64,000 nt of DNA from Candidatus Woesearchaeota archaeon (GTDB lineage: Archaea; Nanobdellota; Nanobdellia; Woesearchaeales; UBA10216), in NCBI GenBank assembly GCA_002688315.1, contig NZCN01000002.1, positions 38,979 through 102,978 of the forward strand. The letters run 5' to 3'. The notes beneath the pieces were generated by a model. That model made no database searches. It was not told where the DNA came from and saw only the letters and a program-made list of their open reading frames with translations. Positions 16,076-51,826 of this stretch are shown here, piece by piece (within the stretch, counting starts at the first letter, position 1; every line of letters starts with the position of its first letter). Made by a program: the position numbers and the translations under genes.

Positions 16076-16081
16076 CAAGAT

Positions 16082-36874: not shown

Positions 36875-38794
36875 GTGTCTGAAAGCAGTATGGGATTTGG
36901 TTTTATAGTGCTGTTTTACGCATTGCTTGCCTTATTTGGATTTTTATTTCTGAAGTTTTGGAAAAACCTAGATGATTTTGAACGTGCTGTTCTTTCATTT
37001 CCTTTTGGCAGCGCGCTTTACGCGATGACAGCATTTGTTTTGAGTGAATTTATAGGAATTAAACTAAATGTTTCTGTGCTTTCACTTTTACTTGCTGCAA
37101 TGCTAATCATAGTAATTGCATTTAATTTATTTCTAAAAAACTTAAAAATTCCAAGACCAAAGCTGCAGTTTAAGTTTTCTTTTGTTACAGTTTTATTAAC
37201 GCTTTTTATTATAGCAATGTCTTTGCATGCTTTGGCTGTTCCGATATATAAGCAGGACGCTTACATGTATCACCTTCCGTTTGCAGAAAAAATATACGAA
37301 ACAGGTCATTTGCCAGATATTAATCCTAGCGTAATTCGTTTTGAATACGCTTACCCTCCTTATCAGTATATGATGTATGCGTTTACCAGTTTCTTTAATG
37401 GTTCAATGACTGCTGTTCCTGCAAAAATTCTTCCATTAATATTCGGGCTTTTGTTGCTTGCTTTGCTTTACCGCACTACAAGAACTTTTGCTGACAGAGA
37501 AACATCTTTATTTGCTGTGCTGCTTTTCACAGCAGCTTATTATTATTCTAACATGATATTTTATTCAAATACAGACATAACTACTGCTTTTTATGTGGTA
37601 GCAGCCATTTACATTCTTCTGAAGATAGTAAAGCAGCCGCTTGCCCATAACTATTTGCTTTTTTCAATGCTTACTGCAATGGCATACTGGACTAAATATA
37701 CTGCAATTGCTCCATTGATTATAGCATGGGTTATTCTTGCAGCTTATTCTTTTGCATCACACAAGAAAAAGTTCCTGATTTCAGTTGCAGTGGTTTTACT
37801 CTTTATTTCTCCTTATTTTATTCGCAATATATTAGAAACTGGAAACCCGCTTTATCCTGGGTTAAGCTCATTGTTTGGTGGAAAAGGCTTATCTCCATGG
37901 TATGAAGCAAATATTTTATCATCTTACCTGCCAAAACCATTTTCCACTTTTAATCCAGTGTTTTTCTTTAAGTTAAGCTATCTTTTGCTTCCTTTAACTG
38001 CAGTGTCATTGTTCATGAGAAAGAAGCTCTCTCAAAGAATCTTGCTTATCTTTGCCATAAGCTATATCGCATTATGGTTTCTTTTTTTAAGAAATCCTGC
38101 AATGCCAAACACTTACAGATATCTTACACCAGCAATTATTTCCTTTTCTGCTGTTGCTGCTCCTGCATTTGTTTTGTTCCTAAAGCAAGAGCTTAATGCT
38201 AAAATGAAAAAAGTATTTTTCATAACATCTTCCTCCATAATAGCTTACTTGCTTTATCTAATATTAATCAGAAAAGATGTTGCAGAAAACATAGTGTTGA
38301 TTGCGGTTGTCTTTATTGCAATAGCATTTTCTTTAACAAAAATTAATTTAAAATTTGCTTCAGCTGCAATGCTGCTTGTTTTCCTTGCTCCTTCTGCATT
38401 AAGTCTCCATGTACAACCCTTAAATTTTTCAGAAGAGCTTTTTTCTGATGTAACTTACCAAAGCTCAGGAAAAATTCCCTTGTGGATAGATTCAAATCTG
38501 CCTGACGATGCTAAGATATTGTATTTTTTTGAATATCCTTACCTTGTTCCACGCACAATAATTCCAGCTGATGATCCTTCTGTTCAAAAAATGTATGTAA
38601 GTTCAAAAGAAGAAACTTACGAACTTTTGAAAGAGCTCGAGATAACGCACGTTTACTCTCTGGATGATGGCAAAGGAGCATTCAGGTTCTTTTCCAAGTC
38701 TGCTCCTAACATAAACCTTGCTGAACCAGAGTTCACACTTCTTTATAATGAGACATTTAAAGGGAAAATACGCGGCTTGTACAGGGTAAATTAA
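36875..38794 (+). CDS. GT-C fold membrane glycosyltransferase, PMT_2 (ArnT/PMT-like)
   Basis: 639 aa, 'AMAYWTKYTAIAPLIIAWVIL' (the TKYTA block typical of PMT_2) and a loop-1 'PIYKQDAYMYHLPFAEKIYETGHLPD'. Confidence 0.6.
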   Translation: MSESSMGFGFIVLFYALLALFGFLFLKFWKNLDDFERAVLSFPFGSALYAMTAFVLSEFIGIKLNVSVLSLLLAAMLIIVIAFNLFLKNLKIPRPKLQFKFSFVTVLLTLFIIAMSLHALAVPIYKQDAYMYHLPFAEKIYETGHLPDINPSVIRFEYAYPPYQYMMYAFTSFFNGSMTAVPAKILPLIFGLLLLALLYRTTRTFADRETSLFAVLLFTAAYYYSNMIFYSNTDITTAFYVVAAIYILLKIVKQPLAHNYLLFSMLTAMAYWTKYTAIAPLIIAWVILAAYSFASHKKKFLISVAVVLLFISPYFIRNILETGNPLYPGLSSLFGGKGLSPWYEANILSSYLPKPFSTFNPVFFFKLSYLLLPLTAVSLFMRKKLSQRILLIFAISYIALWFLFLRNPAMPNTYRYLTPAIISFSAVAAPAFVLFLKQELNAKMKKVFFITSSSIIAYLLYLILIRKDVAENIVLIAVVFIAIAFSLTKINLKFASAAMLLVFLAPSALSLHVQPLNFSEELFSDVTYQSSGKIPLWIDSNLPDDAKILYFFEYPYLVPRTIIPADDPSVQKMYVSSKEETYELLKELEITHVYSLDDGKGAFRFFSKSAPNINLAEPEFTLLYNETFKGKIRGLYRVN

Positions 38795-39810
38795 CTCTTT
38801 AACATTCTTTTAACAGCGTCTGCAAATCCTTTCACATCTCCATCTTTAACAAGAATTCCTTTCTTTACAACTTCTGGATGGCTTCCTACATCAAATGCAA
38901 CAACTTTCTTGCCGCACATCTGCGCTTGCACAGTAGGAATGTCAAACCCTTCCCATAATGTTGCTGTTGCATACAAATCGCAGGCTCCGAAATAGTAAGG
39001 CAAATCTTCATCACTTACAAAGCCTGTAAATACCACACTGTCTCTATGATTTTTACTCAGCTTCATCAGTTTCTTTGAATATTTGTCAAATGTTGGTTTT
39101 CCTACAATAACTAATGTTGCATCTATTTCTTTTTTAATTATGTTAAATGCTTTTAACAGCAAATGCACTCCTTTGTGCGGTGATAGTCTTCCAACAAAAA
39201 GAATTACTGGTTTCTTTAGCTTGTGTTTCTTAACAATTGCCTGTATTTTTTTCTTATCCAGATTTGTATTATACTCTTTGCTGTCAACTTTAACATGTTT
39301 TACTGTGCTGTCAAGCCCTGTTTCTCTCAATAATTCTTTTCTGAGAAAATCACTTATTGAAATAGCTGAGTCCGCATTCTTAACACTAAGATTAGTTAAT
39401 ATATTAAAAAAATTCATGTAAGTTCTTTCAAATAAATTAAACAGTTTTGGATAAGCTACTCCAACGTTATAATAAACATATTTTTTCTTGTAATACTTTC
39501 TTGCAGTAGATGCTATTATTGTCATTGGGTAAAGAAAGCTGACAACTTCATCGTACTCCTTAAGCATTTTCGCAGTTTTTATAATTTTAAAAAAGTCCAG
39601 AAAGAAGAGAAGCCTGTAAATCCTTTCCAAAGTTGCGTTTGAAGGCATCCAAAGCTCAACAACATTGTAATTCTTGGCTTTTATGTCTCCTTTGAAAGTA
39701 AACACTGTTACTTTGTTTCCTTTGGCAACGTGTTCTTCTGCCTCATTCTTCACAACCCTATCAGGCCCGGAAAACCGGAAAAAAGTCGGAGTAAGTATGG
39801 CTATTCTCAT
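38791..39810 (-). CDS. GT4 (GT-B) glycosyltransferase
   Basis: 'LYATATLWEGFDIPTVQAQMCGKKVVAFDVGSHPEVV' (EX7E-type block). Confidence 0.7.
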   Translation of the reverse strand: MRIAILTPTFFRFSGPDRVVKNEAEEHVAKGNKVTVFTFKGDIKAKNYNVVELWMPSNATLERIYRLLFFLDFFKIIKTAKMLKEYDEVVSFLYPMTIIASTARKYYKKKYVYYNVGVAYPKLFNLFERTYMNFFNILTNLSVKNADSAISISDFLRKELLRETGLDSTVKHVKVDSKEYNTNLDKKKIQAIVKKHKLKKPVILFVGRLSPHKGVHLLLKAFNIIKKEIDATLVIVGKPTFDKYSKKLMKLSKNHRDSVVFTGFVSDEDLPYYFGACDLYATATLWEGFDIPTVQAQMCGKKVVAFDVGSHPEVVKKGILVKDGDVKGFADAVKRMLKS

Positions 39811-39880: not shown

Positions 39881-40621
39881 TTGCTTTTTTTTATGGAAAA
39901 ATTGTCTGTTGTTATTCCTGCTTATAACGAGGAGCGTTATATTGAGGAAATCATTACCAGAGTTAAAAAAGTAAACTTGAAATTCCTGAACTTGCAGAAA
40001 GAAATAGTTGTGGTTGATGACGGTTCAACAGACAAAACAGCTTCTATTGCTTCAAAAATTAAGGGAGTTAAGCTTATTCGCCACATAAAAAATTCTGGAA
40101 AAGGCGCTGCCATACGAACAGGTCTTAAGCATGCAACTGGCTCAATTATTTTAATTCAGGATGCTGATCTGGAATATAATCCAAATGAAATGCCAAAGGT
40201 TGTTCGTCCTATTGTTGAGCGCAAAGCAGATGTTGTTTACGGCTCCCGTTATCTTGACCCAAATCAGAAAGCGAGAAACAAAACTTATCTGAAAAAAGTG
40301 CATAAAAATGCTTACCAGCTTTTCTATATGGGGGGCAGAGGACTTACTTTGATAGCAAACTTTCTTTACAATGCTAAAATTACTGATGAAGCAACCTGTT
40401 ACAAAGCTTTCCGCGCAAAAATAATCAAGAGCCTTAACTTAAGATGCACTCGTTTTGAGTTTTGCCCTGAAGTAACTGCTAAAGTCGCAAAGCGAGGCAT
40501 AAAAATAATGGAAGTTCCTATCAGCTACACTCCCCGCTCTTTCGAAGAAGGCAAAAAGATAAAAATGCGAGACGGCATAGAAGCCTTCTGGACACTTCTC
40601 AAGTATAGGTTTTTTGATTGA
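39881..40621 (+). CDS. GT2 glycosyltransferase (Dpm1/GtrB-like catalytic domain; likely start ~39893)
   Basis: 'LSVVIPAYNEERYI', 'VVDDGSTDKT' and 'IQDADLEYNPNEM'. Confidence 0.75.
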   Translation: MLFFMEKLSVVIPAYNEERYIEEIITRVKKVNLKFLNLQKEIVVVDDGSTDKTASIASKIKGVKLIRHIKNSGKGAAIRTGLKHATGSIILIQDADLEYNPNEMPKVVRPIVERKADVVYGSRYLDPNQKARNKTYLKKVHKNAYQLFYMGGRGLTLIANFLYNAKITDEATCYKAFRAKIIKSLNLRCTRFEFCPEVTAKVAKRGIKIMEVPISYTPRSFEEGKKIKMRDGIEAFWTLLKYRFFD

Positions 40622-40657: not shown

Positions 40658-41722
40658 ATGGAAGAAAGTCGTCAAATTTTTATTGAAAAAGAAACTCCAA
40701 GTACTACTCCTGCAGCGCCAACGCAGACAACTACGCCAACTTCGCCAGTTACTCCAGCGTCACCTACTCCTGCTCCTTCATCTACCCCTGAACCAGTTCC
40801 TGAACCTCTTCCTCCTAACATGGAAAATGTAAGATGTGATTTATGCGGCAAGGATGATAATGTTGTTATTTACAAAGGCGCTTTAAAATCTGAAGAAGGC
40901 GGTTCTACGAAGGAAGAAGAAACTTACAAATCTTCTGGAAACAAGCCAACTGAAGATACCATAGTTAAGTGCAACAATTGCGATTTAATTTACGTTAATC
41001 CAAGGTTAAAAGCAGAAAAGATTGTTCATGGCTATTCTGAAGGCGCTGATGAAAGCTTTGTAAGCCAGGTTAAAGGGCGCGAAACAACGTCTGTTGCAGG
41101 GCTTAAGTTCATAGAAAAGTTTGCCAAGCCAGGAAAGATTCTTGATATTGGAACTGCTTCTGCAAGCTTTCTCCATGTTGCTAAAAATCGCGGCTGGCAG
41201 GTTTACGGAGTTGAGCCAAACAAATGGCTTTGCAATTGGGCGCAGAAAAATTACGGCCTTTACATACAGCCTGGAACTATTGACAGCTTAAATTACCCTG
41301 ACAATTTTTTTGATGTTATTACTTTGTGGGATGTTTTAGAGCATGTTCCTAATCCAACTGAAGTTTTAAAGAAATGCCATCGCCTTATTAAGCCAGGCGG
41401 CTACATATACCTTAATTATCCTGATTATGAAAGCTACGCGTCCAAGATTATGAAAAGCAAGTGGATATTCCTGCTTTCAGTCCACATCTACTATTTTACC
41501 AGAGAAACAATTGCCAAAACACTTGAAAAAACAGGGTTCCAAACCTTAAAATATAGAACTCACTGGCAAACACTAAACTTTGGCTACCTTATTTTCAGGA
41601 TGCAGCCTTACAGCATGCTTCTCTACAAACTTGGCAACTTTTTCGCAGGTCTGCTCCACGTAAAAAACTTCCCGTTAAAATACCAGCTAGGTCAAACCGG
41701 AGTTATTGCTAGGAAGAAATGA
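40658..41722 (+). CDS. SAM-dependent methyltransferase with N-terminal Pro/Thr-rich low-complexity region and a Cys4 zinc ribbon
   Basis: 'TPSTTPAAPTQTTTPTSPVTPASPTPAPSSTPEPVPEPLPP', then 'CDLCGKDD...CNNCDLIYVNP', then 'ILDIGTASASF' (motif I) and 'IKPGGYIYLNYP'. Confidence 0.6.
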   Translation: MEESRQIFIEKETPSTTPAAPTQTTTPTSPVTPASPTPAPSSTPEPVPEPLPPNMENVRCDLCGKDDNVVIYKGALKSEEGGSTKEEETYKSSGNKPTEDTIVKCNNCDLIYVNPRLKAEKIVHGYSEGADESFVSQVKGRETTSVAGLKFIEKFAKPGKILDIGTASASFLHVAKNRGWQVYGVEPNKWLCNWAQKNYGLYIQPGTIDSLNYPDNFFDVITLWDVLEHVPNPTEVLKKCHRLIKPGGYIYLNYPDYESYASKIMKSKWIFLLSVHIYYFTRETIAKTLEKTGFQTLKYRTHWQTLNFGYLIFRMQPYSMLLYKLGNFFAGLLHVKNFPLKYQLGQTGVIARKK

Positions 41723-41725: not shown

Positions 41726-41953
41726 TCATAAGTGTTTTACGAATTCTTCTCTCTTTATTTTCAAATCCTGTTTAATTATTTTGTTCAGTAGACCTCTATC
41801 AACTTCTTCTCCTGGATGATTAGGTACTACGGTAGTTCTTCCATCAGGATGATCGAAGAACATATGACTTCCTTTTTGTCGCTTAAACTCAAACCCAAGC
41901 TTTTTCAGAACTTTAGCAATTTCTTTAGCTTCAAGTAAAGGCAGCTTTGTCAT
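41726..41953 (-). CDS. hicA: HicA-family toxin (mRNA interferase, YcfA-like)
   Basis: 75 aa with 'AKVLKKLGFEFKRQKGSHMFFDHPDGRTTVVPNHPG'. Confidence 0.8.
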   Translation of the reverse strand: MTKLPLLEAKEIAKVLKKLGFEFKRQKGSHMFFDHPDGRTTVVPNHPGEEVDRGLLNKIIKQDLKIKREEFVKHL

Positions 41954-42168
41954 TAAACTTCAACTTCTATTTGTTCTACACCTAAGAATTTAGTTTTTGT
42001 TTCAATCTGCTTATTCTCGTCTATATACAACGAAATAGCCTCTTTAGTTCTTTTAATCAGTTCATCACGTGTTTTTGCTTGAGTATGACAGCCAGGAAGT
42101 CCAACTACTTCAGAAATCAAATACCCATCTTCACCTTGTTCAACTATTATCGTAAATTTTTCAACCAT
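41953..42168 (-). CDS. hicB: HicB-family antitoxin (UPF0150-like)
   Basis: 71 aa with 'FTIIVEQGEDGYLISEVVGLPGCHTQAKTRDELIKRTKEAISLYI'. Stop overlaps the hicA start. Confidence 0.7.
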   Translation of the reverse strand: MVEKFTIIVEQGEDGYLISEVVGLPGCHTQAKTRDELIKRTKEAISLYIDENKQIETKTKFLGVEQIEVEV

Positions 42169-42250
42169 TTTTATCTAATCATAACTGTTGTTTCTGCGTT
42201 TATATACTTTTTGGCTGGTCTAAAGAAAAACATTTTAAAATCATCTCTCA

Positions 42251-43744
42251 TTGCTTTCGTACATGATAACTCTTATTAATCCAAATATTGTCATGCAGAA
42301 GGATGACTTGTTTGGAACTGGTATTCCTTACATGCCTGTAGAGCTTGCTTATGTTGCAGCAACGCTTAGGGCAAAAAATATTGAATTCAAGCTCATCGAT
42401 TCTTTTGGATTAAATCCAAAACAAATCACCAGGCTGGACAGCCAGTTTGTTCAGGGCCTAACCACTGATCAAATTCTCGCTCAAATACCTTCTAGTTCAA
42501 AATATATTGTTGTTTATTGCGGTCTTGTTGTTACGTTCAGAGTAATTACGCAAATTATTTCAGCTGTAAAAGAAAAATTCCCGAATATTCCTGTTATTTG
42601 CATTGAAAACACTCAGCAGGTAACTTCTTTCTCAATCAAAGAAGCTTCTCCAAAATTGTTTAAAGCAGGCGCAGACATTATTATGATTGGAGATCCTGAA
42701 GCGCGAATAGTTGATGTTGTTTCAGGGAAAGACTTGAAAAAAATCAAAGGATTGATGTTTAAGAAAAACAATAAGATTGTGAAGACAGAGCTTTCAGACA
42801 TTTTTATAAAAGAAGTTGATGACCTTCCTTTCCCTGCATGGGATTTGTTTCCATTAAAAAATTACTGGAAGCTTGGATATGCGCATGCGCCTTTAAAATC
42901 AAAAAAATACATTTCTATTCTAACTTCCAGAGGCTGTCCTTTTGGATGCCATTTTTGCGTTATTCCTGCAACTAACATTAGAAGATGGACTCCACGCTCC
43001 GCAAAGAATGTTGTAGATGAGATGGAGCACTGGATTAAAACTTTTGGAGTGCATGAATTCCATGTTGAAGACTTAAATCCTACAGTTAAGAAGGAAAGAA
43101 TGGTTGAGATTTCAAAGGAAATCCTTGAAAGAAAATTAAAAGTTTCGTTTAAGTTTGGCGCTGGAACTAAAATAGAAACCATGGATGAGGAAACTATTGA
43201 CTGGATGGCTAAGGCTGGTTTAACTTACTTGTCCTGCTCGCCAGAGTCAGGCTCTCCCCGCATACTAAAAGCAATGGACAAGCCGTTTAGCCACCAATTA
43301 GCATTGCAACTCATAAAGCGTCTTAACAAAGACAAAGTAACAACTCAAGCCTGCTTTGTTCTTGGCTATCTTAATGAGACTGATGATGACCGCAAGCTAA
43401 CTCAGAACTATGTTAAAGAGCTTACAAAAGCAGGTGTTGATGAAATAGCATTGTTCATAATGACTCCGATACCAGGAACTTATACTTTTGACAAGGTAGA
43501 GGGCTATGATGATTATTCTCAGCTTACTTTTTCTCCAAAATGGAGGAAAGAATATAAAAAGCTGTCATCTTTTAGAATTCATACGTACATGAAATTCCTT
43601 TTATGGAAACTGCGTTACCATCCCATAAAACTTTTTAAGCAACCTATCAGTTTCCTTACTGGAAGGTTTAACACAAAAATGGAAATGACAGCTTTCAGAT
43701 GGCTTAAAATTAATATATTATCAAGAATTCCTTTTATTGGTTAA
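42251..43744 (+). CDS. B12-binding domain radical SAM enzyme (class B rSAM)
   Basis: N-terminal cobalamin-binding-like Rossmann region, then 'LTSRGCPFGCHFCV' (CxxxCxxC) and 'CSPESGSPRILKAM'. Confidence 0.75.
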   Translation: MLSYMITLINPNIVMQKDDLFGTGIPYMPVELAYVAATLRAKNIEFKLIDSFGLNPKQITRLDSQFVQGLTTDQILAQIPSSSKYIVVYCGLVVTFRVITQIISAVKEKFPNIPVICIENTQQVTSFSIKEASPKLFKAGADIIMIGDPEARIVDVVSGKDLKKIKGLMFKKNNKIVKTELSDIFIKEVDDLPFPAWDLFPLKNYWKLGYAHAPLKSKKYISILTSRGCPFGCHFCVIPATNIRRWTPRSAKNVVDEMEHWIKTFGVHEFHVEDLNPTVKKERMVEISKEILERKLKVSFKFGAGTKIETMDEETIDWMAKAGLTYLSCSPESGSPRILKAMDKPFSHQLALQLIKRLNKDKVTTQACFVLGYLNETDDDRKLTQNYVKELTKAGVDEIALFIMTPIPGTYTFDKVEGYDDYSQLTFSPKWRKEYKKLSSFRIHTYMKFLLWKLRYHPIKLFKQPISFLTGRFNTKMEMTAFRWLKINILSRIPFIG

Positions 43745-45131
43745 AATGAGAATCATCATAATAGGAGCAGGTGTAACTGGCTTGGCTGTTGCATGGAAGC
43801 TGGCTAAAGACCATGAGGTTGTTATTCTTGAAAAGCGCAAAGTTATTGGTGGTATAGCAACTACTTTTAAGCATCAGGACTTTTTGCTTGACTTCGGTCC
43901 GCACAAAATCTATTCTTTAATTCCAGGAATACTCGATGAAATGAAAGCATTGCTTGGCGATGAAGCAACAGTAATTCCAAAAACATCCGGAGTTATTATT
44001 GATGGAAAGCGCTTAGATTATCCGATTAAGTTTACTGACTTGTTCCTTAAGCTTAGCCCTTTAACCAGCTTTAAGCTAATGTTTGGCTTTGGCATAGCGT
44101 TTCTATTATCTTTTGTAAACCGCAAAACTCCAGTGTCTTATGCTGATTATTTCAGAAAAAATTTCGGAGTTCCTGCTTATAATTTAGTTTTCAAGCCAAT
44201 AGCAGATAAATCCTGGGGAAATCCTGAAAATTTGACTGCTGAGCTTGCTCAAAAGCGTGTTCCTTTCGACGGTATATTTAAGCTTATCAAATCAATGGTT
44301 ATGAAAGACAACAAACTGAGCGCAGAAAACTTTTACTATCCTCGTCAAGGATTTATCAGAATGTCAGAGATTATGCTCGATCATGTAACTAATAATAAAG
44401 GCCACTTAATGCTGGATGCTGAAGTAAAAAATTTCAGCATAGAAAATAACAAAATAACTTCTGTTGAATTCCAGCATGAAGGAAAGCTTAAGAAACTCAA
44501 TGCAGATTATGTTGTGTCTTCTGCGCCTATTACTGCAATGCCGGCTATGTTTAATGCTCCTCCTGAAGTAATGAATGCTGCTTCAGAGCTTAAGTTTCGC
44601 TCTTTGCTGTTAGTTTACGTTTTAGTGAACAAGCCTAAAGTAATGCAGGATGTGTGGACTTTTGTTCCTGATAAGAATTTTATTTTCCAGCGTGTTTCAG
44701 AGCAGAAAAACTTTAGCCAGCAAATGGGTCCTGAAAACCAGACTGTTCTTATTGCAGAAATAATGTGCGATTATAATGATGGTTTGTGGAATGCGCCTGA
44801 TGCAGAGCTGTACAGCAAGGTAATATCTGATTTAACTAAAGGAAAATTTGTAAATGAAGGAGAAGCATCTGGCTTCTATATTTTAAAGGTAAAAAACATT
44901 TATCCTGTTTACGAAATTGGCTATAAGGAACGGCTTTCTAAAGTCTTAGGATTTACAGACAAATTTGAAAACTTTATAACGCTTGGCAGGCTTGGCTTGT
45001 TCAACTACAACAACACTGACCATTGTGTTGACATGGCAATCTGGGCTTCAAACCACATCCGCTCCAAGAAGCCAATAAGCGACTGGCTGGAAACAAGAAA
45101 AAGATTCGATGAGTATGTTATTGTTGATTAG
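43737..45131 (+). CDS. FAD-dependent oxidoreductase (amine-oxidase / UDP-galactopyranose-mutase-like fold)
   Basis: 'IIIIGAGVTGLAVAWKLAKDHEVVILEKRKVIGG' (GxGxxG dinucleotide fold) and 'DFGPHKIYS'. Start overlaps the rSAM stop by 8 nt. Confidence 0.6.
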   Translation: MVKMRIIIIGAGVTGLAVAWKLAKDHEVVILEKRKVIGGIATTFKHQDFLLDFGPHKIYSLIPGILDEMKALLGDEATVIPKTSGVIIDGKRLDYPIKFTDLFLKLSPLTSFKLMFGFGIAFLLSFVNRKTPVSYADYFRKNFGVPAYNLVFKPIADKSWGNPENLTAELAQKRVPFDGIFKLIKSMVMKDNKLSAENFYYPRQGFIRMSEIMLDHVTNNKGHLMLDAEVKNFSIENNKITSVEFQHEGKLKKLNADYVVSSAPITAMPAMFNAPPEVMNAASELKFRSLLLVYVLVNKPKVMQDVWTFVPDKNFIFQRVSEQKNFSQQMGPENQTVLIAEIMCDYNDGLWNAPDAELYSKVISDLTKGKFVNEGEASGFYILKVKNIYPVYEIGYKERLSKVLGFTDKFENFITLGRLGLFNYNNTDHCVDMAIWASNHIRSKKPISDWLETRKRFDEYVIVD

Positions 45132-45377
45132 CTATTTCTTCCTGTTCATTCTAAACATCCTAGCTTCTCTTTTGATGTCTACTATGTCAAATATTTTTAT
45201 TTTTGGGATTAATGGAAGTGTCATTAGAACAAATATCATTGCAACCAGATAGCGTGTAAAGAATCCTGAATCTAAAGGATAAAGCTTGAATGCGTGTATT
45301 ATCAGCAATATCAGCAGAAAAACAAGCAAGACAAAGTATAGCGCAATAGCTGTCTTTTTACCTCTTTTTTTTGCCAT
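45132..45377 (-). CDS. Small membrane protein (81 aa, 2 TM) downstream of the processive GT2
   Basis: Hydrophobic ORF with a basic N-terminus 'MAKKRGKKTAIALYFVLLVFLLILLII'. Confidence 0.3.
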   Translation of the reverse strand: MAKKRGKKTAIALYFVLLVFLLILLIIHAFKLYPLDSGFFTRYLVAMIFVLMTLPLIPKIKIFDIVDIKREARMFRMNRKK

Positions 45378-45434
45378 AGTATTTATTTCTTATTGTCTTT
45401 ATTTAAATCTTTCCAAGTAACTAATTGTTGTTGT

Positions 45435-46661
45435 TTACCTGAACGTCATATATAACGAATTTGCCAGTGCTGTTGCTGCCTTTTTTGAAACGGGAAGAAC
45501 ATGTCCAGCTATATTTTTAACCGTTTTTGTTACTCCACCAACAATATCTGGTTGATTTACGTAAGCGTATAAAAGAGCATCATTTATGCTGTTCTTAGTA
45601 TGATTGTAAATGGCGCGTGATCTCGAAGGATATATTGTTGCAGCTCTGTAGAGAGGCATTAAAGGCATTGTTGCAAAAAATTGAGCATCTTTTTTAATTT
45701 CTTTACGTGCCATAACCGCCATGGCGCTAAGGAATGCAAGATCAGTACCGTAATAAAGTGCAAAATATTTCCAACTTTTATCTATGCCACTTGATACGCC
45801 TGTGTATTCAGTGATTGGTAAAGCAGCGAATACTCCCATCTGGATAGCTGTTAATATCCCAAACCTTTTTAATTTCAGTGCTGATAATGCAGTTTTGGCA
45901 AAGAAACCTCGTTCTTTAGTGTATGTTTCTAAAGCACCGAGTTCCCACCTTACTCTTTGCTTATGCAAAGTCATTATATCTTCAGGCGTTTTAGTATTGA
46001 TTACAAATTGAGAAAAATTTGTTAAACCATATCCGTGACGCATGGCCATTGTTGTAAGCTCCATATCATCTCCATTATGCCTGCCGCTGTGCTCTGGAAA
46101 TATTTCTTCCAACACATCCCTTTTCCAAATTCCTCCAGCTCCGGCTATACATCGTGTTTTTCTTTCTTTTCTAGCTATACCATCAAAGGCTCGTCCAAGA
46201 GTATACTCTAGATTTTGAATATAACCAAGCAATGTATCTGTGTTCTCTCCATCAACTCTTAATGCAAAACCACCTAACCCTGAATCAGAATTTAAAGAAT
46301 CAACCATATCATCAAAATGCGCCATGCTTTCTTCAGGAATAGAGGAATCAAAATCAGTGAGTAATACGGTGTCTATATAATCAGGTGCAGTGTCGACAGC
46401 TTTCTCGATAGCTCCGATTTTATTGCCATTCTTAGACATAAACACTGCCTTAAAAGCAGGAGTGTTTCTTTCTACATAGTCTGAAAGCTCTTCTTTTGAG
46501 CCATCTGTTGAGGCATCATCAATTATAATAACATCTAAAAAGTCTTTATAAGTATCTGCTAACCAAGCAAAATAATCCAGCCTACCCTCTAAGTTGGAAC
46601 GACTCTTCTCGTTATATTCAGGAACTACTACTGCTGTTCGTTTCATATTCCAAAAGCCCAT
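45435..46661 (-). CDS. Processive GT2 beta-glycosyltransferase (cellulose/chitin/hyaluronan-synthase-like)
   Basis: 'IIIDDASTDGS', 'LLTDFDSSIPEE' and 'KQRVRWELG' (Q(R/Q)xRW processivity motif). Hydrophobic C-terminal region. Confidence 0.7.
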   Translation of the reverse strand: MGFWNMKRTAVVVPEYNEKSRSNLEGRLDYFAWLADTYKDFLDVIIIDDASTDGSKEELSDYVERNTPAFKAVFMSKNGNKIGAIEKAVDTAPDYIDTVLLTDFDSSIPEESMAHFDDMVDSLNSDSGLGGFALRVDGENTDTLLGYIQNLEYTLGRAFDGIARKERKTRCIAGAGGIWKRDVLEEIFPEHSGRHNGDDMELTTMAMRHGYGLTNFSQFVINTKTPEDIMTLHKQRVRWELGALETYTKERGFFAKTALSALKLKRFGILTAIQMGVFAALPITEYTGVSSGIDKSWKYFALYYGTDLAFLSAMAVMARKEIKKDAQFFATMPLMPLYRAATIYPSRSRAIYNHTKNSINDALLYAYVNQPDIVGGVTKTVKNIAGHVLPVSKKAATALANSLYMTFR

Positions 46662-46742
46662 ATTTCTCCCTTTATAAACCTTTCTATTTGTTACTACTTG
46701 ACAGTTATTATAACTGTAAAGAAACTTCGGAGTTTTTGGGCT

Positions 46743-47867
46743 TTAAACTTCAGAATTAATCAGTTCTCTATAAACTTTCAGGTAACCGCTTATGTTTTTT
46801 TCCAGCAGGAACTTTTTGAGTGGTGCTTTATTGTATTTTTTGTGGTAAACGCGTTCAACTGCGGTTGCTATTTCTTCACTGCTTCTTGGATTTACAAGCA
46901 AATATTTTCCAGATACAACTTCTGGAAGCGATGTTGTGTTTGTTGCAACTACTGGAACGCCTAGCGCGCATGCTTCTGCTGCTGTATACCCAAAACCTTC
47001 TGAAAGGCTCGGTACAACCACACAGTCTGCTGCTTTTATGTGTTTTGGCAGCATTTTATAAGGAACAGGCTCGAGCAGAATTACTTTATTTTCTATTCTT
47101 AATTTTCTTATCAATGCTTTTAGCTTTTTCAGTTTTAGATTGTACTGCTTGTCTTTGCTTAGTATGAACAAGTATTTGAGTTTTGGAACATCTATCAAAG
47201 GTATGGCTTTTATTGCGTATTCGATTCCTTTGCTTGGTCCAGGTCTTCCATAAGTCAGGCAGACAAATTTGTTTTCCAGCTCATAGTCCTGCCTTATTTT
47301 TTTCCCGCTGTGCTTTTTAGGGTCAAAATGCTTGTAATCAACTGCATTGTAAACAGTTAAAGCTTTTCCAGGGCTTTTCCCTATATCTAACAATTGCTTT
47401 CTTGTTGAATTAGAGACTGCTGTGTATTTGTCAAATGGAAGAAGGTAAATTAGTTTTTCAAGGAAATTATGCAGAAACGCTGTTAGCGTGCTCATTGTTG
47501 TGTATTCTTTCCATTTTCCTATCCAGACTTCATGAACTGTTATCAAGCATTTTTTTCTGGAAAGTTTAGAGACAATCCATGCAGGAAACGCTCCATTGAA
47601 AGTTGTTGTGTGGATTATATCTGCTTTCTTTGCCTCTTTTAGTGCTTTTGGTATTGCCAAAAAGCTAAACAAGTACCTGCTTTGCAGGCAGTTAATGCGA
47701 TGAATCTTCACTCCATTAAGCTCTTCATATTTTCTTGTATTCTTAGGTCTATGCGTAATAATTGTAATGTCATGCTTCTTGGCAAGTCCTTCTGCAAGGT
47801 TTTTGAAAACTATCTCTACCCCACCAATATGAGGAAGATAGTTCTCAATAACAAATAAAATTTTCAT
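46743..47867 (-). CDS. GT4 (GT-B) glycosyltransferase
   Basis: 'VVVPSLSEGFGYTAAEACALGVPVVATNTTSLPEVV' is the classic GT4 EX7E block. Confidence 0.7.
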   Translation of the reverse strand: MKILFVIENYLPHIGGVEIVFKNLAEGLAKKHDITIITHRPKNTRKYEELNGVKIHRINCLQSRYLFSFLAIPKALKEAKKADIIHTTTFNGAFPAWIVSKLSRKKCLITVHEVWIGKWKEYTTMSTLTAFLHNFLEKLIYLLPFDKYTAVSNSTRKQLLDIGKSPGKALTVYNAVDYKHFDPKKHSGKKIRQDYELENKFVCLTYGRPGPSKGIEYAIKAIPLIDVPKLKYLFILSKDKQYNLKLKKLKALIRKLRIENKVILLEPVPYKMLPKHIKAADCVVVPSLSEGFGYTAAEACALGVPVVATNTTSLPEVVSGKYLLVNPRSSEEIATAVERVYHKKYNKAPLKKFLLEKNISGYLKVYRELINSEV

Positions 47868-47894
47868 CTTAATCTGAGAAACTTTTAATCCCTT

Positions 47895-49007
47895 TTAAGG
47901 TTTACTGAAAACAACAGCATCATATACAAACTCGCTAAAAACAGTCTCTCCGTTTTCATTAAAATGAAAATCATCTGGATAGTAAACATCGCCATCTTTT
48001 GCTCCCTCAATCAGGGCTTGGCTTGGGTCAAAGAAATTTATTCCCAGCTCTTCTGCGATTTCTCCAAGCTTTTCAGCGTAGGAAGTTATGCTGACATTTT
48101 CAGCTTTCAAATTGTTCTGCTGCAAAAACAAATCAAAGTCTGTTTTCTGGATTTCCAGTTTAGCTGGAACGTAAACAATGCTAAAGCTAACGTTTTTTTC
48201 GTCAAGAGTTTCTTTCATATCCCTGAGAATCAAAGCAGTGTTTCTCCATGCAAGCTCAACAGCTTCATTAGACTCTTTTGTGTAAGGGTCTACTCCAAAA
48301 TTCACGCTTTTCTGGGAAATTTTCGGTTTAGCGCCTACACCTATTAATCTTACAAACCTTCCGAGCTTGTCATTGTGTGCAGCATAAAACCTGACTGTCC
48401 AATGGCACGTGTTTAAGAATCTCGCGCAGTTAAGCAACGTTTTCTTTATAAATGGAATTTTTACAGGTGTTAAATCAATCACTTTGTCATCTTTAAATGC
48501 AAGCAAAAATGTGCTGGCAACGTTTTCAAGGTCATTATTGTAATAAGGCATTATCAATTGGTCTGGGTTGTATTTCAAGGCATTTTCAAGATATTTGAAC
48601 TGGTTTGCTGTTCCCCATGAGCCTGCGCCGTATGAAAGAACTTCGTAGCTTTCTTCAAACTCGTTGTTAAGTTTTTTCTCAACTAACCTTGAAAAGCGTT
48701 TTTCCGGTTCAATGTACAGTCCCATGGCAAACGAATCTCCTAATATGAAAATTCTTTTGTCAGTGCTTCTTTCTATTTGCGGGTTTTGGTAGACAAAGCC
48801 TGCGTCATTTGTTACTACATGCCCAATCCTGGCTCCCTCATGAGGCATATCCAGATTTTCTCCCATTCTATAAACTAGATTTTCATCAGGAATGTATGTT
48901 GCATAGTACGGAAACAAAAAGAAATGGAACAGAACTTCAGTAAAAACTAAAAGTATTGAGACTGTTATCATAAGTAATAATAAGTTTTTCAGGATGTTTT
49001 TAACCAT
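47895..49007 (-). CDS. Membrane-anchored SGNH/GDSL-fold hydrolase
   Basis: N-terminal TM, 'IFILGDSFAMGLY' (block I), 'SYGAGSWG' (block II), 'DDFHFNENGETV' (DxxH block). Confidence 0.6.
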   Translation of the reverse strand: MVKNILKNLLLLMITVSILLVFTEVLFHFFLFPYYATYIPDENLVYRMGENLDMPHEGARIGHVVTNDAGFVYQNPQIERSTDKRIFILGDSFAMGLYIEPEKRFSRLVEKKLNNEFEESYEVLSYGAGSWGTANQFKYLENALKYNPDQLIMPYYNNDLENVASTFLLAFKDDKVIDLTPVKIPFIKKTLLNCARFLNTCHWTVRFYAAHNDKLGRFVRLIGVGAKPKISQKSVNFGVDPYTKESNEAVELAWRNTALILRDMKETLDEKNVSFSIVYVPAKLEIQKTDFDLFLQQNNLKAENVSITSYAEKLGEIAEELGINFFDPSQALIEGAKDGDVYYPDDFHFNENGETVFSEFVYDAVVFSKP

Positions 49008-49088
49008 TCCAATCTAGCACAACTCTTTGTTTTTAAGCTTTACTGATAAAGAGGCTTAGTAGAAAATCTCGCTTCACTCACTTATGCT

Positions 49089-49141
49089 GCGCTTATTTTC
49101 TCTCCTCCCTAACTAAGGTAAGGAGGAGGAAAATAAGCGCG
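49089..49141. terminator. Long near-perfect intergenic inverted repeat (CTCCTCC family hairpin), downstream of 49220..49426
   Basis: 'gcgcttattttctctcctcc-ctaactaaggta-aggaggaggaaaataagcgc': ~20 bp stem. Confidence 0.4.
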
Positions 49142-49219
49142 TGACAATAACTTTCTAGAGAGGAGAAGAAAAGGGAAAACAAGCAAAAGAACAGTAGCGA
49201 GTAGAGTATGACAAATGTT

Positions 49220-49426
49220 CTAGAACAACGCGTAGATGAATGGGCTTAGTCCTGTGCTTTGCCCGAATATTATTAAGCCGCCTACCAAAACAAGCATTAG
49301 TATTGTTGGAAGCAGCCAGAATTTCTTGCGAATTCTCATAAAATTCCATAAGTCTGAAAGAACTGAAAAATGTCTCTGAACGAAACTCTTTTCTTTTTGT
49401 TCAGGCGCTATTGGCTCTGGTTCCAT
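49220..49426 (-). CDS. DUF5989-like small membrane protein (SxtK-like companion of carbamoyltransferases)
   Basis: 'LSDLWNFMRIRKKFWLLPTILMLVLVGGLIIFGQSTGLSPFIYALF'. Directly downstream of the carbamoyltransferase on the same strand. Paralog at 20963..21133. Confidence 0.5.
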   Translation of the reverse strand: MEPEPIAPEQKEKSFVQRHFSVLSDLWNFMRIRKKFWLLPTILMLVLVGGLIIFGQSTGLSPFIYALF

Positions 49427-49464
49427 AAACTCTCCAATTTATTCCTACTTTAAAAATTTTTTCA

Positions 49465-51192
49465 TTAGTCTTTCGCCAGGCTCTCAGAGTCCCACAAGTC
49501 TTTTTTGTTTTCGTTTCTGTCTATTAGGCAGTTTCCAACAACTAAATAGTCAATGCCTGTTCCTGTGAAGCAGCGGTAAGCGTGCTGGGGTGTCATTACT
49601 ATTGGCTCGCCTCTTATGTTAAATGACGTGTTTACCAATACAGGAACTCCGCTGTGTTTCTTGAACTCTTTTATTAGCTTGTAATACATGGGATTTTGTT
49701 TTTCTGTTATTGTTTGCAGCCTTCCGGTTCCGTCAACATGTGTTATTGCAGTGAGTATTAGCCTCATTTCTTCTCTTACAGGATAAACAAATGACATGAA
49801 CGGCACTTCCAAGTCAACTTCAAAGTATTTTTTTGCGTCTTCTAAAGGAACAACTGGCGCAAAAGGCCTGAATTGTTCGCGGTGTTTGACTTTCAAATTT
49901 AATATGTCTTTCATTTTAGGATTGCATGGGTTAGCGAGTATGCTTCTGTTTCCTAATGCACGCTCTCCAAATTCCATTCTTCCTTGGAACCATCCTATTA
50001 CATTGTTTTCCCACAAAAGTTTTGCTACTGTTTTAATCAATTCAGAATTTTTCAGTCTTTTGTATTTTACTTTCTTTTCATTCAGAAAGTTTTCAATGTA
50101 TGCTTCGTCATATCCTGGCCCGAAAAAAGTGTCAGTTATTTCATATCTTTTTTTGCTTCCTAATGCCATGTTCCAGACTGCCATGGCTGCTCCCTGGCTT
50201 GAGCCTGCATCACTTGGCGCTGGAGGCACGTAAACATTTTTGAATTTTGTATTCTTGGTTATTTTTCCGTTTGCAACGCTGTTCAATGAAACTCCTCCTG
50301 ACAAACAAAGGTTTTCTGACCCGCTAATTTTCTGTAAATGGTTGAGCATTTTGAAGTAAACTTCTTCAACTACTTTTTGAACCGAAGCTGCCAGGTCTTT
50401 ATGGTATTGCTCTACTTCAGATTCTTTTTCTCTTTCAGGCCCAAACTCTTCAACGAATTTTTTGCTGTGCATTTTAGCTTTGTAATGAAATACAAAGTAG
50501 CTCATGTCAAGCCTGTAGCTTCCGTCTTCTTTGATGTCTATAAGTTTCTTGACTTTGTCATAATATATTGGCTTTCCGTAAGGAGCAAGCCCCATTACTT
50601 TATACTCGTCATTGTTTACTTTGAATCCAAGATAACCTGTTACTGTGCTGTAGAGCAATCCCAATGAGTGTGGAAAATTTATTTCTTTAAGCAGTTTTAT
50701 GTTGTTGTCTTTTCCTGTTCCAAGAGTTGTTGTTGCCCATTCTCCAACACCGTCTGTTGTCATTATTGCTGCTTCTTTGAATGGTGAGGCAAAGAATGAG
50801 CCTGCTGCATGCGTTAAGTGGTGCTCAACATAGTAAATCTCTCCTCTGTAGCCGCATTTTTTGCTCATCAAGGAAGGTATTCTTAATTTTTCCATGGCCC
50901 ATGAAGGCAAAGCTTGAACAAAAGTTAATAATGATCTTGGAAACATTTCTAAGTGTGAGTTAAGAAGCCTTTCAAACTTCAGCATAGGTTTTTCGTAAAA
51001 CGCAACATAACTTACGTCTTTTATTGTAATTCCTGCTTCCCGCAGGCAGTATTTTATTGAGTTTATTGGAAAGTCTGTGTCATGCTTTTTCCTGCTCCAT
51101 CTTTCTTCCTGAGCTGCAGCTATTAGCTTTCCGTCTTTTATTATTGATGCTGAAGAGTCGTGGTAAAAGCAGGCAACTCCAAGTATGTACAT
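49465..51192 (-). CDS. Carbamoyltransferase, NodU/CmcH family (second copy)
   Basis: 'MYILGVACFYHDSSASIIKDGKLIAAAQEERWSRKKHDTDFP', 575 aa. Confidence 0.85.
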   Translation of the reverse strand: MYILGVACFYHDSSASIIKDGKLIAAAQEERWSRKKHDTDFPINSIKYCLREAGITIKDVSYVAFYEKPMLKFERLLNSHLEMFPRSLLTFVQALPSWAMEKLRIPSLMSKKCGYRGEIYYVEHHLTHAAGSFFASPFKEAAIMTTDGVGEWATTTLGTGKDNNIKLLKEINFPHSLGLLYSTVTGYLGFKVNNDEYKVMGLAPYGKPIYYDKVKKLIDIKEDGSYRLDMSYFVFHYKAKMHSKKFVEEFGPEREKESEVEQYHKDLAASVQKVVEEVYFKMLNHLQKISGSENLCLSGGVSLNSVANGKITKNTKFKNVYVPPAPSDAGSSQGAAMAVWNMALGSKKRYEITDTFFGPGYDEAYIENFLNEKKVKYKRLKNSELIKTVAKLLWENNVIGWFQGRMEFGERALGNRSILANPCNPKMKDILNLKVKHREQFRPFAPVVPLEDAKKYFEVDLEVPFMSFVYPVREEMRLILTAITHVDGTGRLQTITEKQNPMYYKLIKEFKKHSGVPVLVNTSFNIRGEPIVMTPQHAYRCFTGTGIDYLVVGNCLIDRNENKKDLWDSESLAKD

Positions 51193-51774: not shown

Positions 51775-51826
51775 TTTTTGTTATCCCTCTGTTTTTTTGA
51801 AATTACCGCTGTTTTTTAAATTTATT

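Follow-up and report, generated by a model that had tools for sequence, protein, structure and literature searches.

The window, i.e., the whole stretch of 64,000 nucleotides that was analysed, belongs to a contig of a marine Woesearchaeota (a DPANN archaeon), and its open reading frames lie where the original prediction had placed them. The two genes of main interest, both on the forward strand, encode a radical SAM enzyme (rSAM; 42263..43744, 493 aa, PF04055) and a UGM-type flavoprotein of the PRK07208 family (43746..45131, 461 aa), a putative sugar pyranose/furanose mutase. Upstream on the same strand we find genes for a GT-C type membrane glycosyltransferase (PMT_2/DUF8201; 36890..38794, 634 aa, about 14 TM helices), a small GT2 of the polyprenyl-phosphate glycosyltransferase type (DPMS/AglJ/ArnC/PpgS-like; 39893..40621, 242 aa) and a class I SAM methyltransferase (Methyltransf_23, PF13489 at 2.5e-28; 40658..41722). 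The reverse strand of this upstream part carries a GT4 glycosyltransferase (38791..39810; Pfam Glycos_transf_1 and Glyco_transf_4) and, according to the gene calls (PF07927 and PF15919), a HicA toxin (41726-41953) with its HicB antitoxin (41953-42168). Downstream, again on the reverse strand, follow an 81-aa protein with two predicted TM helices (45132..45377), whose ORF converges with the flavoprotein gene and abuts it at 45131/45132, a NodC/PgaC-like GT2 with a QRVRW motif (45435..46661; PF13632, PF13641, PF00535), a second GT4 (46743..47867) and an SGNH/AlgX-like protein (47895..49007; Pfam ALGX at 1e-7 and Lipase_GDSL_2), a putative glycan O-acetyltransferase or esterase. Near the QRVRW GT2 there is, beside this AlgX/SGNH gene, also a carbamoyltransferase gene, and the window furthermore holds an Fcl-like gene.

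The predicted 8-nt overlap between the rSAM and flavoprotein genes requires the TTG at 43737, a mechanically assigned start. In public gene calls, as in all homologues, translation begins at the ATG at 43746 (461 aa, MRIIIIGAG), i.e., the rSAM stop codon (43742-43744) and the flavoprotein start are separated by a gap of 1 nt. This tight junction is kept in DPANN relatives, either as ATGA overlaps (survey loci L010 and L014) or with gaps of 5-11 nt (L007-L009).

With regard to the rSAM, its identity is confirmed by the PF04055 match (67.8 bits) and the CX3CX2C motif (C225/C229/C232), to which the family adds one further invariant cysteine and the invariant motifs DxFGTG, ENTQ and FPAWDLFP of its own. 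It belongs to an uncharacterised family with about 50% identity across archaea and bacteria; 3032 homologues were found. None of the curated NCBIfam families is reached, i.e., the scores (HpnJ 125, Sden_1168 125, BchE 123, AprD4 48.8 bits) are at most 125 bits versus cutoffs of 480-578. The enzyme had been predicted to bind B12. In favour of this, its AF2 model (pLDDT 93.7) shows a class-B architecture, that is, an N-terminal five-stranded Rossmann domain, the rSAM TIM barrel and C-terminal helices. On the other hand, the window protein has no match to the B12-binding family PF02310 even at E<=1, while PF02310 is detected in 29/44 family members (best 1.8e-6). The closest PDB folds are MgmA, AprD4, TsrM, TokK, CysS and OxsB, with the highest TM-scores obtained for AprD4 (0.70/0.75), which binds no cobalamin (PMC12931638). 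With such an enzyme among the closest structural neighbours, cobalamin dependence is unproven, and so, therefore, is the C-methylation that had been suggested.

The flavoprotein matches Pfam Amino_oxidase, NAD_binding_8 and, marginally, GLF, and it carries DFGPHKIYS at residues 49-57, which agrees with the Glf/amine-oxidase-like N-terminus originally described. NCBIfam PRK07208.1-4, a family labelled 'hypothetical protein', is matched at 271 bits; a moderately hydrophobic helix spans residues 99-120. As its AF2 model suggests (pLDDT 91.1), the protein shares the three-domain fold of UGMs, especially eukaryotic ones (A. fumigatus, T. cruzi), with the A. fumigatus enzyme (AfUGM) as best structural match (TM 0.81-0.83) and protoporphyrinogen oxidase (PPO, TM 0.78) as second-best fold class. 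The family profile matches AfUGM over its full length (E 2.4e-36). Furthermore, equivalents of H63, R182, R327, Y419, R447, Y453, N457, W315 and W167 are kept in 41-42 of the 42 family members, such that the G-x-H histidine loop, both diphosphate-binding arginines (R182/R327) and the catalytic Tyr/Asn residues are invariant, as in UGM. In contrast to UGM, other residues stand at the uridine and galactose contact positions (N163A, N207A, Y317F, Y334F), identity is only 18-19% and the Glf equivalog score (54 bits) stays below its cutoff of 304. From model and alignment, we classify the flavoprotein as a UDP-galactopyranose-mutase-type enzyme with a different nucleotide/sugar pocket. Given the invariant UGM residues and the AfUGM match, it does not fall among the phytoene desaturase-type proteins. 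Since it is Glf/UGM-like instead, a furanose-containing, methylated product is a reasonable guess.

To describe the genomic context, we surveyed 80 related rSAM loci (rSAMs 44-81% identical), which cover about 20 archaeal and bacterial phyla, among them DPANN archaea, Patescibacteria, Chloroflexota and Planctomycetota. Homologues no more than 6 kb away from the rSAM were counted as partners; the 38 loci whose sequence extends at least 6 kb to either side are referred to as full loci. The Methyltransf_23-like methyltransferase is the most constant partner (69/80 loci; 37/38 full loci), followed by the small polyprenyl-phosphate-type GT2 (66/80; 33/38) and the flavoprotein (57/80; 31/38). That is, the predicted pairing of rSAM and flavoprotein is real and far beyond chance. 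Typically, the genes are co-directional in the order rSAM-GT2-MT-FAD, and in 31 of the 38 full loci a large membrane protein (>=400 aa, >=7 TM segments) is encoded no more than 8 kb from the rSAM; the genes of such proteins often end 7-90 bp before it. Independent locus look-ups gave the same partner pattern.

Within the window, the partners (GT2, methyltransferase, PMT_2) are located upstream of the rSAM, and the cassette is split by the HicAB pair between methyltransferase and rSAM. The same insertion is seen in L008 while it is absent from L007, L009 and L010, where the methyltransferase abuts the rSAM. Cassettes also occur without the rSAM (L090, L091) or without the flavoprotein (L003, L036, L061); as they are separable, both enzymes need not share one intermediate. 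Sugar-activation genes beside the cassettes include UDPGP (L018), a beta-PGM-like HAD with a nucleotidyltransferase (L036) and Gmd/Fcl (Anaerolineales). No flippase was identified within the window cassette, and small EamA, DUF2304 or GtrA proteins are found in some loci only.

The window's small GT2 scores best with AglJ (112.8 bits), ArnC (79.6) and PpgS (79.4), and its top PDB sequence match is the P. furiosus Dol-P-Man synthase (5mlz, 5e-24), followed by ArnC and GtrB; no TM helix is predicted in it. The cassette GT2s of L018, L021, L033, L036 and L052 likewise all have their best matches among AglJ/PpgS/Dol-P-hexose transferases. The methyltransferase combines a Pro/Thr-rich N-terminal stretch with a CxxC...CxxC zinc ribbon (CxxC at residues 60 and 105). 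For the PMT_2 protein (Pfam PMT_2 5e-11; gene call PF13231/PF26626; 14 hydrophobic segments) we propose a role as extracytoplasmic transferase using a lipid-linked donor, and PMT_2, PMT or YfhO proteins also flank the cassettes of L005, L019, L021, L030, L044, L052, L091 and the P0199 locus. Conservation of the GT4 at 38791..39810 next to the cassette is restricted to close relatives among the Woesearchaeota (L007-L010, 259-551 bits).

Our preferred reading, to which we give an even chance, is that rSAM and flavoprotein act as tailoring enzymes in a cassette that is conserved, has spread horizontally and would provide a methylated, radical-modified furanose on polyprenyl-phosphate for transfer by GT-C enzymes. 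In this reading, the core of the cassette consists of the polyprenyl-(dolichyl-)phosphate GT2 and the class I methyltransferase, usually adjoining GT-C membrane glycosyltransferases. Points against it are the replaced UGM contacts and low Glf score, the missing PF02310 match and the cobalamin-free AprD4 as a top structural neighbour, the separability of rSAM and flavoprotein and, in the window, the lack of an assigned flippase, a GT2 devoid of TM helices and the split by HicAB. In the pathway we infer, the UGM-type flavoenzyme would convert an NDP-sugar from pyranose to furanose, maybe while the sugar is still bound to the nucleotide or, which would be less conventional, once it sits on the lipid-phosphate carrier. 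The GT2 would place the sugar onto polyprenyl/dolichyl phosphate, and the rSAM with its class-B architecture could perform a radical C-H functionalisation of the lipid-linked sugar, where C-methylation would be the first choice for a cobalamin-binding enzyme, and deoxygenation, epimerisation or ring contraction are alternatives. The Methyltransf_23 enzyme may O-methylate the sugar. Finally, the tailored donor would cross the membrane by flipping, and on the outer side the GT-C enzyme would use it to decorate a surface glycan or glycoprotein. Of all this, the gene identities, the fold-level assignments, the conserved UGM residues and the co-occurrence are observed, while the substrate, the sequence of steps, the lipid-linked stage, cobalamin use and the rSAM chemistry are deduced.

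Such a scheme resembles three-component extracytoplasmic glycosylation, which combines a polyprenyl-P-sugar synthase, a flippase and a GT-C enzyme, e.g., GtrA/B/C, CsbB/GtcA/YfhO, ArnC/E/F/T, mycobacterial decaprenyl-P-arabinofuranose with Emb/Aft, and archaeal AglD/AglR/AglS. As in these systems, a DPMS/ArnC/GtrB-like GT2 adjoins a PMT_2/YfhO-type GT-C, and they offer precedents both for auxiliary donor-tailoring enzymes (ArnD, DprE1/E2, ORF13 epimerase) and for a furanose donor of GT-C enzymes. In contrast, the cassette's tailoring set comprises a UGM-type flavin mutase, a class-B-like rSAM and a Methyltransf_23 enzyme, a set that to our knowledge none of these systems contains, and the window cassette has no assigned flippase. 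The pentofuranose PPPRS/MATE/GT136 systems (PMC11127046), in which lipid-linked furanose donors are tailored for GT-C enzymes, belong to the same group. The furanose of the cassette would arise by the flavin mutase and not from PRPP.

The best sequence and fold matches of the rSAM are class B enzymes (Sden_1168/PhpK P-methylases, BchE, HpnJ, MgmA, TsrM, TokK, OxsB), which share its Rossmann, CX3CX2C barrel and helical domains with the look-alike AprD4; the missing PF02310 match and the family-own motifs set the window protein apart from them. We know of no characterised class B member for which a context of polyprenyl-phosphate GT2, methyltransferase and GT-C has been described. The rSAM might instead catalyse an HpnJ/Cds/OxsB-like ring contraction, by which the GT2-made lipid-linked sugar would become a carbocycle, that is, a head group or donor of the cyclitol type. 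HpnJ is a tied top curated match, OxsB is among the fold matches, and in HpnI-HpnK-HpnJ (hopanoid cyclitol ether) and calditol synthase Cds a class-B rSAM remodels a lipid-linked sugar, after the GT2 HpnI in the former (PMC13459092), which is a precedent for our preferred reading as well. However, P-methyltransferase and BchE families score equally, all far below cutoff; an HpnK-like deacetylase and a hopanoid/GDGT context are absent; and, judging from the GT-C neighbours, the product would be a glycosyl donor that must retain its anomeric phosphate, presumably bound to a phosphate carrier until transfer, while the known products are permanent head groups. We thus consider a ring contraction unlikely.

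We also rate an AprD4/AprD3-like pair as improbable. Here, the rSAM would be a cobalamin-free sugar 1,2-diol dehydratase and the flavoprotein would reduce the keto-deoxy intermediate. The leading TM-scores of AprD4, the lack of PF02310 and the tight juxtaposition of the rSAM with an oxidoreductase-fold gene fit this scenario. It conflicts with the full UGM non-redox catalytic signature of the flavoprotein, which is not a reductase site, with the occurrence of each gene without the other, and with the low AprD4 NCBIfam score compared to HpnJ and Sden_1168.

In the original prediction, the processive QRVRW GT2 next door, its 81-aa partner and the GT4 build a homopolysaccharide, which both enzymes then modify. 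The genes are indeed adjacent and convergent, the GT2 has all processive-type motifs (DDAS at 48, DFD at 103, GDD at 197, QRVRW at 235; PgaC 53, NodC 32 bits), the 81-aa ORF and the Pfam-supported GT4 are as described, and the AlgX/SGNH and carbamoyltransferase genes nearby would suit a modified polymer. Synteny largely refutes such a module, to which we give very little chance. The QRVRW GT2 occurs in 0/80 related rSAM loci; a homologue with 42% identity (P0248) is surrounded by ribosomal and SepF genes, without the cassette; and it is the opposite flank of the rSAM that holds the conserved partners. The 81-aa protein (no Pfam or NCBIfam match; homologues only in the close Woesearchaeota relatives L007-L009) comes immediately after the GT4 in L008 and L009, where no such GT2 exists, and is thus not its specific partner. 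Conservation of the GT4 itself near the cassette is limited to close relatives (L008 and L009 with 664-675 bits, L025 with 478), and the SGNH/AlgX-like protein is found in 0/80 loci at >=50 bits. QRVRW GT2, 81-aa protein and GT4 are therefore other tenants of the same glycosylation island, outside the conserved cassette. Last, a lipid or cofactor pathway with a BchE/HpnP-like rSAM, a CrtI/HpnE/protoporphyrinogen-oxidase-like flavoprotein and incidental GT neighbours is barely credible: the leading NCBIfam matches include BchE and HpnJ, PPO is the second-best fold class and homologues carry the annotation 'protoporphyrinogen oxidase' or 'BchE' in some sources, but every examined locus is a glycan locus (GT2, GT4, GT-C, NDP-sugar enzymes) with no tetrapyrrole, carotenoid or hopanoid genes, and the UGM-specific residues are invariant.

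We thus return to the tailoring cassette. Its conserved polyprenyl-phosphate-type GT2 and methyltransferase partners point to an uncharacterised, widespread pathway that would yield a lipid-linked sugar donor, chemically modified and probably a furanose, with which the cell surface is glycosylated.

We located the partners of the radical SAM gene (rSAM, 42263-43744(+)) and of the flavoprotein gene that follows it (43746-45131(+)) in 80 rSAM loci from species-representative genomes, whose six-frame ORFs were searched with the window proteins. With two strict peptide patterns, we obtained matches in 340 species. Truncation affects many of the 80 loci; 38 loci reach at least 6 kb to either side (full loci). 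Within 6 kb of rSAM, a methyltransferase like that of the window is present in 69/80 loci (37/38 full loci), the small GT2 in 66/80 (33/38) and the flavoprotein in 57/80 (31/38). All three partners are found together in 26/38 full loci. The genes of this cassette are almost always co-stranded, with rSAM-GT2-methyltransferase-flavoprotein as the usual bacterial order. That is, the true rSAM partners in the window are the small GT2 (39893-40621(+)) and the Methyltransf_23 methyltransferase (40658-41722(+)) located upstream, with a HicA/HicB pair (41726-42168(-)) inserted between them and rSAM. This toxin-antitoxin insertion splits an otherwise contiguous cassette; L008, a 75%-identical relative, has it too, and the close relatives L007, L009 and L010 lack it.

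All ORFs named by the original prediction were found in the window, and its GT2 (45435-46661(-)) indeed carries processive-type motifs (DDAS 48, DFD 103, GDD 197, QRVRW 235). The proposal that rSAM and flavoprotein modify a homopolymer made by this GT2 together with an 81-aa two-TM ORF (45132-45377(-)) and a GT4 (46743-47867(-)) did not hold up. The QRVRW GT2 is near rSAM in 0/80 related loci and missing from the close relatives of the window; the 81-aa ORF and the downstream GT4 are restricted, among the 80 loci, to the closest Woesearchaeota relatives. The 81-aa gene of L008 and L009 comes directly after the GT4, and no QRVRW GT2 is present there. A 42%-identical homologue of the GT2 is encoded in another archaeon immediately upstream of SepF and among ribosomal-protein genes (L089, 6001-7490). 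The proposed module is thus not a conserved unit. The QRVRW GT2 is remote from all solved structures (best PDB match only 7e-4) and from curated families (PgaC 53 vs. 422, NodC 31.8 vs. 550), and membrane prediction yields two weakly hydrophobic C-terminal segments only. The adjacent AlgX/SGNH-like gene (47895-49007(-)) is likewise found near rSAM in 0/80 related loci. A co-directional set (45435-51192(-)) comprises the NodC/PgaC-like GT2, the GT4, the AlgX/SGNH-like gene, a DUF5989 gene (68 aa) and a NodU-like carbamoyltransferase. These genes possibly form a module of their own, whose product would be an oligo- or polysaccharide with carbamoyl or acetyl groups.

The GT2 of the cassette is, by sequence, of the polyprenyl-phosphate glycosyltransferase type. 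Its GT-A catalytic domain best matches Pyrococcus Dol-P-Man synthase (5mlz, 5e-24 over residues 3-227), followed by ArnC and GtrB. The best NCBIfam scores (AglJ 112.8, ArnC 79.6, PpgS 79.4 bits) are each below the equivalog cutoff, such that we assign it by family type only. Cassette GT2s of five other phyla show the same best-match pattern. The methyltransferase of the window starts with a Pro/Thr/Ser-rich low-complexity extension of about 50 aa (40658-40830(+)) in front of a CxxC...CxxC zinc ribbon; its bacterial homologues of about 300-315 aa are without this extension.

A large polytopic membrane protein is encoded within 8 kb in 31/38 full loci and often ends a few bases before rSAM. Every one of these proteins that is recognized by Pfam is a GT-C enzyme, i.e., PMT_2 in the window (36890-38794(+), upstream of rSAM, 5e-11) and in loci L019, L030, L044, L052 and L057, PMT in L021 and L091, and YfhO in L005 and the P0199 locus. 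A GT-C transferase lies beside the cassette in the window and in at least 8 other loci. Single-linkage clustering of the neighbouring ORFs suffered from antisense shadow ORFs and lumped GT2 and methyltransferase clusters together; it added solely Anaerolineales-specific membrane proteins of 700-890 aa. No flippase of the GtrA, EamA/ArnEF, MATE or Wzx type was identified within the window cassette; elsewhere, candidate flippase genes are found in L005 (EamA and DUF2304), L090 (GtrA) and the P0199 locus (Wzx-like). Small 3-4-TM ORFs occur in only 9/80 loci. A recurrent pair is formed by a small GT2 (about 218-249 aa) and a DUF2304 membrane protein (about 114-118 aa), encoded at 51430-52486(-) in the window, 12236-13304 in L005 (directly after the cassette flavoprotein) and 10443-11494 in L090. 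We consider DUF2304 a possible candidate for the flippase-like component that the cassette lacks.

Sugar-activation genes often adjoin the cassette, e.g., UDPGP in L018 or a beta-phosphoglucomutase-like HAD and a nucleotidyltransferase in L036. In the window, an Fcl-like (GDP-L-fucose-synthase-like) gene (34232-35164(+)) is located 7 kb upstream of the cassette. In Anaerolineales, Fcl homologues (about 400 bits) and Gmd are found 4-9 kb downstream of it (Fcl homologues in L023, L026, L048, L049, L052, L063, L068 and L069). Since this link is limited to Anaerolineales and the window, we take it only as a weak hint at a GDP-6-deoxyhexose.

Together, the genes between 28 and 56 kb make up a glycosylation island. 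Encoded in it are two PMT_2 proteins, a DegT aminotransferase, SDR epimerases (Fcl-like and others), several GT2/GT4 enzymes (among them a GT4 at 38791-39810(-)), a NodU-like carbamoyltransferase, DUF2304 and an AglB/STT3 oligosaccharyltransferase. The latter (1138 aa, 52497-55913(-)) carries an FKBP-type peptidyl-prolyl isomerase domain as a C-terminal fusion, which recurs in a second Woesearchaeota contig (L090, 11491-15165). The window, part of a marine-metagenome contig of a Candidatus Woesearchaeota (DPANN) archaeon, has a low and flat GC content of about 0.36 by composition scan, such that the region does not clearly stand out as a foreign island. The Rfam scan of the window returned no RNA family and the tRNA scan a single tRNA-Leu (62161-62253). 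A TATA-like TTTATATA (42199-42206) upstream of rSAM is not significant in a genome with 64% A+T.

For rSAM and flavoprotein, an 8-nt overlap had been reported, which turned out to be an artefact of using the first in-frame TTG (43737). We rejected this start in favour of ATG 43746, where the public gene calls and all homologues begin and from which the N-terminus reads MRIIIIGAG, i.e., the beginning of the FAD Rossmann fold. The junction is thus ...ATT GGT TAA A ATG AGA..., with a 1-nt spacer between the rSAM stop and the flavoprotein ATG. It is similarly tight in DPANN relatives in which the flavoprotein follows rSAM (ATGA stop/start overlaps in L010 and L014, gaps of 5-11 nt in L007-L009), which makes co-translation of the two genes plausible. 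Both genes have 100% database matches (rSAM CMO88_01095, flavoprotein CMO88_01100), each an NCBI 'hypothetical protein'.

The flavoprotein belongs to NCBIfam PRK07208 (271 bits), whose models are named 'hypothetical protein' too. It shows the three-domain UGM fold with an FAD Rossmann domain: its AF2 model (pLDDT 91.1) is closest to the UDP-galactopyranose mutases of Aspergillus fumigatus (AfUGM) and T. cruzi (TM 0.78-0.83), with protoporphyrinogen oxidase (PPO) as second-best fold (0.78), and AfUGM is the top Foldseek match in the PDB (E 2.5e-30, TMq 0.81-0.83). The family profile aligns to AfUGM over its full length (E 2.4e-36, residues 4-448). We therefore mapped AfUGM residues onto 42 family members, using its catalytic residues (histidine loop G61-x-H63; R182 and R327 for the diphosphate; Y419, R447, Y453, N457) and its uridine/galactose-recognition residues (N163, N207, Y317, Y334, Q107). 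The catalytic signature is conserved in 41-42/42 members throughout, i.e., for the histidine loop (G51/H53), the diphosphate arginines (R182 to R171, R327 to R316) as well as Y419 (Y386), R447 (R415), Y453 (Y421) and N457 (N423); the active-site tryptophans (W315 to W304, W167 to W157) are equally conserved. The uridine/galactose contacts are not kept (N163A, N207A, Y317F, Y334F; Q107 variable). The protein is thus Glf-like, in agreement with the original prediction, and no phytoene-desaturase-type enzyme; based on active-site conservation, we rejected carotenoid, PPO and amine-oxidase readings. Judged by its TIGR00031 score (54.2 vs. a cutoff of 303.75; PF03275 is marginal with 27.4 vs. 26.3), the protein is not a Glf orthologue, and its substrate is probably another phospho-activated sugar. 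Membrane association of the flavoprotein via helix 99-120, or of rSAM, was also considered on grounds of hydrophobicity and dropped as weakly argued (family mean KD about 1.1-1.2).

The radical SAM enzyme is a clear superfamily member (PF04055 67.8 bits vs. cutoff 29.5) with an invariant CX3CX2C motif (C225/C229/C232). There is only one further invariant Cys in the family, which gives no indication of an auxiliary cluster. We retrieved more than 3000 homologues, and at least 340 species carry this large family, whose conservation is unusual (about 50% identity between archaea and bacteria). Woesearchaeota sequences share 44-51% identity with other archaea (Aenigmatarchaeota, Micrarchaeota, Methanocellaceae) and bacteria (Chloroflexota/Anaerolineales, Planctomycetota/Brocadiaceae, Patescibacteria, Bdellovibrionota, Nitrospirota, Omnitrophota, Peptococcaceae and others). 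Its AF2 model (pLDDT 93.7) consists of an N-terminal Rossmann domain (5 strands/5 helices), the rSAM barrel and a C-terminal helical domain, and best fits the PDB folds of MgmA, AprD4, TsrM, TokK, CysS and OxsB. The 'B12-binding' label holds only in part: PF02310 is matched by 29/44 family members (best 1.8e-6), but not by the window rSAM at E<=1. Since AprD4, like ArsL, has a related domain and yet binds no cobalamin (PMC12931638), cofactor use is not readable from the fold. We call the enzyme class-B-like by architecture; it may use cobalamin.

No NCBIfam equivalog covers the rSAM family. The cutoffs of HpnJ, BchE, Sden_1168/PhpK, GenK-type, HpnP/R and AprD4 are reached by 0/44 members; for the window protein, the scores are 125.4 vs. 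577.6 (HpnJ), 124.8 vs. 575 (Sden_1168), 123.2 vs. 481 (BchE), 48.8 vs. 500 (AprD4) and 36 vs. 650 (HpnR). Nearest are the Sden_1168 methylcobalamin-dependent P-methylases (family-best E 1.3e-56), BchE and HpnJ. C-methylation is the reaction we favour. An alternative is ring contraction as in HpnJ/Cds/OxsB-like enzymes (PMC13459092); OxsB is among the best fold matches and HpnJ among the nearest families, at a score far below its cutoff. Deoxygenation as by AprD4 is another alternative, for which the fold match speaks as well. Here, the separability of rSAM and flavoprotein argues against an AprD4/AprD3-style obligate dehydratase-reductase couple.

That the two genes are not obligate partners is evident from several cassette variants. 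In the Woesearchaeota locus L090, a 66%-identical flavoprotein is surrounded by GtrA, GT4, GT2+DUF2304 and AglB-FKBP genes with no rSAM within 7 kb, and L091 encodes PMT, GT2, methyltransferase and flavoprotein without rSAM. Conversely, Brocadiaceae (L003), Bdellovibrionota (L036, L061), Nitrospina and Magnetococcales show a flavoprotein-less variant, in which rSAM and methyltransferase are followed by a HAD phosphomutase, a (sugar-1-P) nucleotidyltransferase, a CofD/YvcK-like::GT2 fusion and a second Pren-P-type GT2. The fusion of a CofD/YvcK-like domain to a Pren-P-type GT2 is encoded at 11471-13492 (L003), 13866-15932 (L036) and 14045-16147 (L061). Thus, the constant core is the Pren-P-type GT2 and the Methyltransf_23 enzyme (plus GT-C), and rSAM and mutase are modular tailoring steps.

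It is well known that a Pren-P-sugar can serve as donor for a GT-C enzyme. Three-component extracytoplasmic glycosylation of this kind is represented by Gtr, CsbB/YfhO, Arn, mycobacterial decaprenyl-P-arabinofuranose and AglD/R/S, and by recently described pentofuranose systems with auxiliary epimerases (PMC11127046). By analogy, we propose that the cassette may form a pathway building a tailored lipid-linked sugar donor; gene identities, folds, active-site conservation and synteny come directly from the analyses, and substrates, step order, the lipid-linked stage and cobalamin use are inferred. The UGM-type enzyme would generate a furanose form, which the GT2 would load onto polyprenyl or dolichyl phosphate. 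Radical C-H functionalization by rSAM and O-methylation of the sugar by the class I methyltransferase would follow, before a GT-C enzyme would transfer the product outside the membrane. More specifically, the donor might be of a new class, i.e., a Pren- or dolichyl-P hexofuranose made by the UGM-type mutase (possibly acting on the lipid-P-sugar) and C-functionalized, e.g., C-methylated, by the class-B rSAM; in this full form we consider the reading possible but rather unlikely. If it were true, this would be the first rSAM known in Pren-P-sugar/GT-C surface glycosylation, on a route common to DPANN archaea, CPR bacteria, Chloroflexota, anammox Planctomycetota and others. Flavin mutase, class-B-like rSAM and methyltransferase are not known as a tailoring set from these systems, and neither is the spread of such a set over DPANN, CPR, Chloroflexota and anammox bacteria. 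A literature search for the gene combination of the cassette found no description of it.

If the proposed model is true, the cassette defines an uncharacterized radical SAM family, and radical SAM chemistry would for the first time be assigned to sugar donors linked to a lipid carrier. The 'hypothetical' flavoproteins of PRK07208 would gain a function as non-Glf sugar mutases. With its four genes, the cassette is a compact and well-defined target for heterologous reconstitution, which has a good chance of uncovering new radical SAM carbohydrate chemistry. To our knowledge, the envelope glycans of DPANN archaea, Patescibacteria, Anaerolineae and anammox bacteria are almost unknown. The model would predict an unusual methylated or branched furanose on the surfaces of all four groups, and the host-attachment or S-layer biology of these cassette carriers may depend on such envelope glycans.
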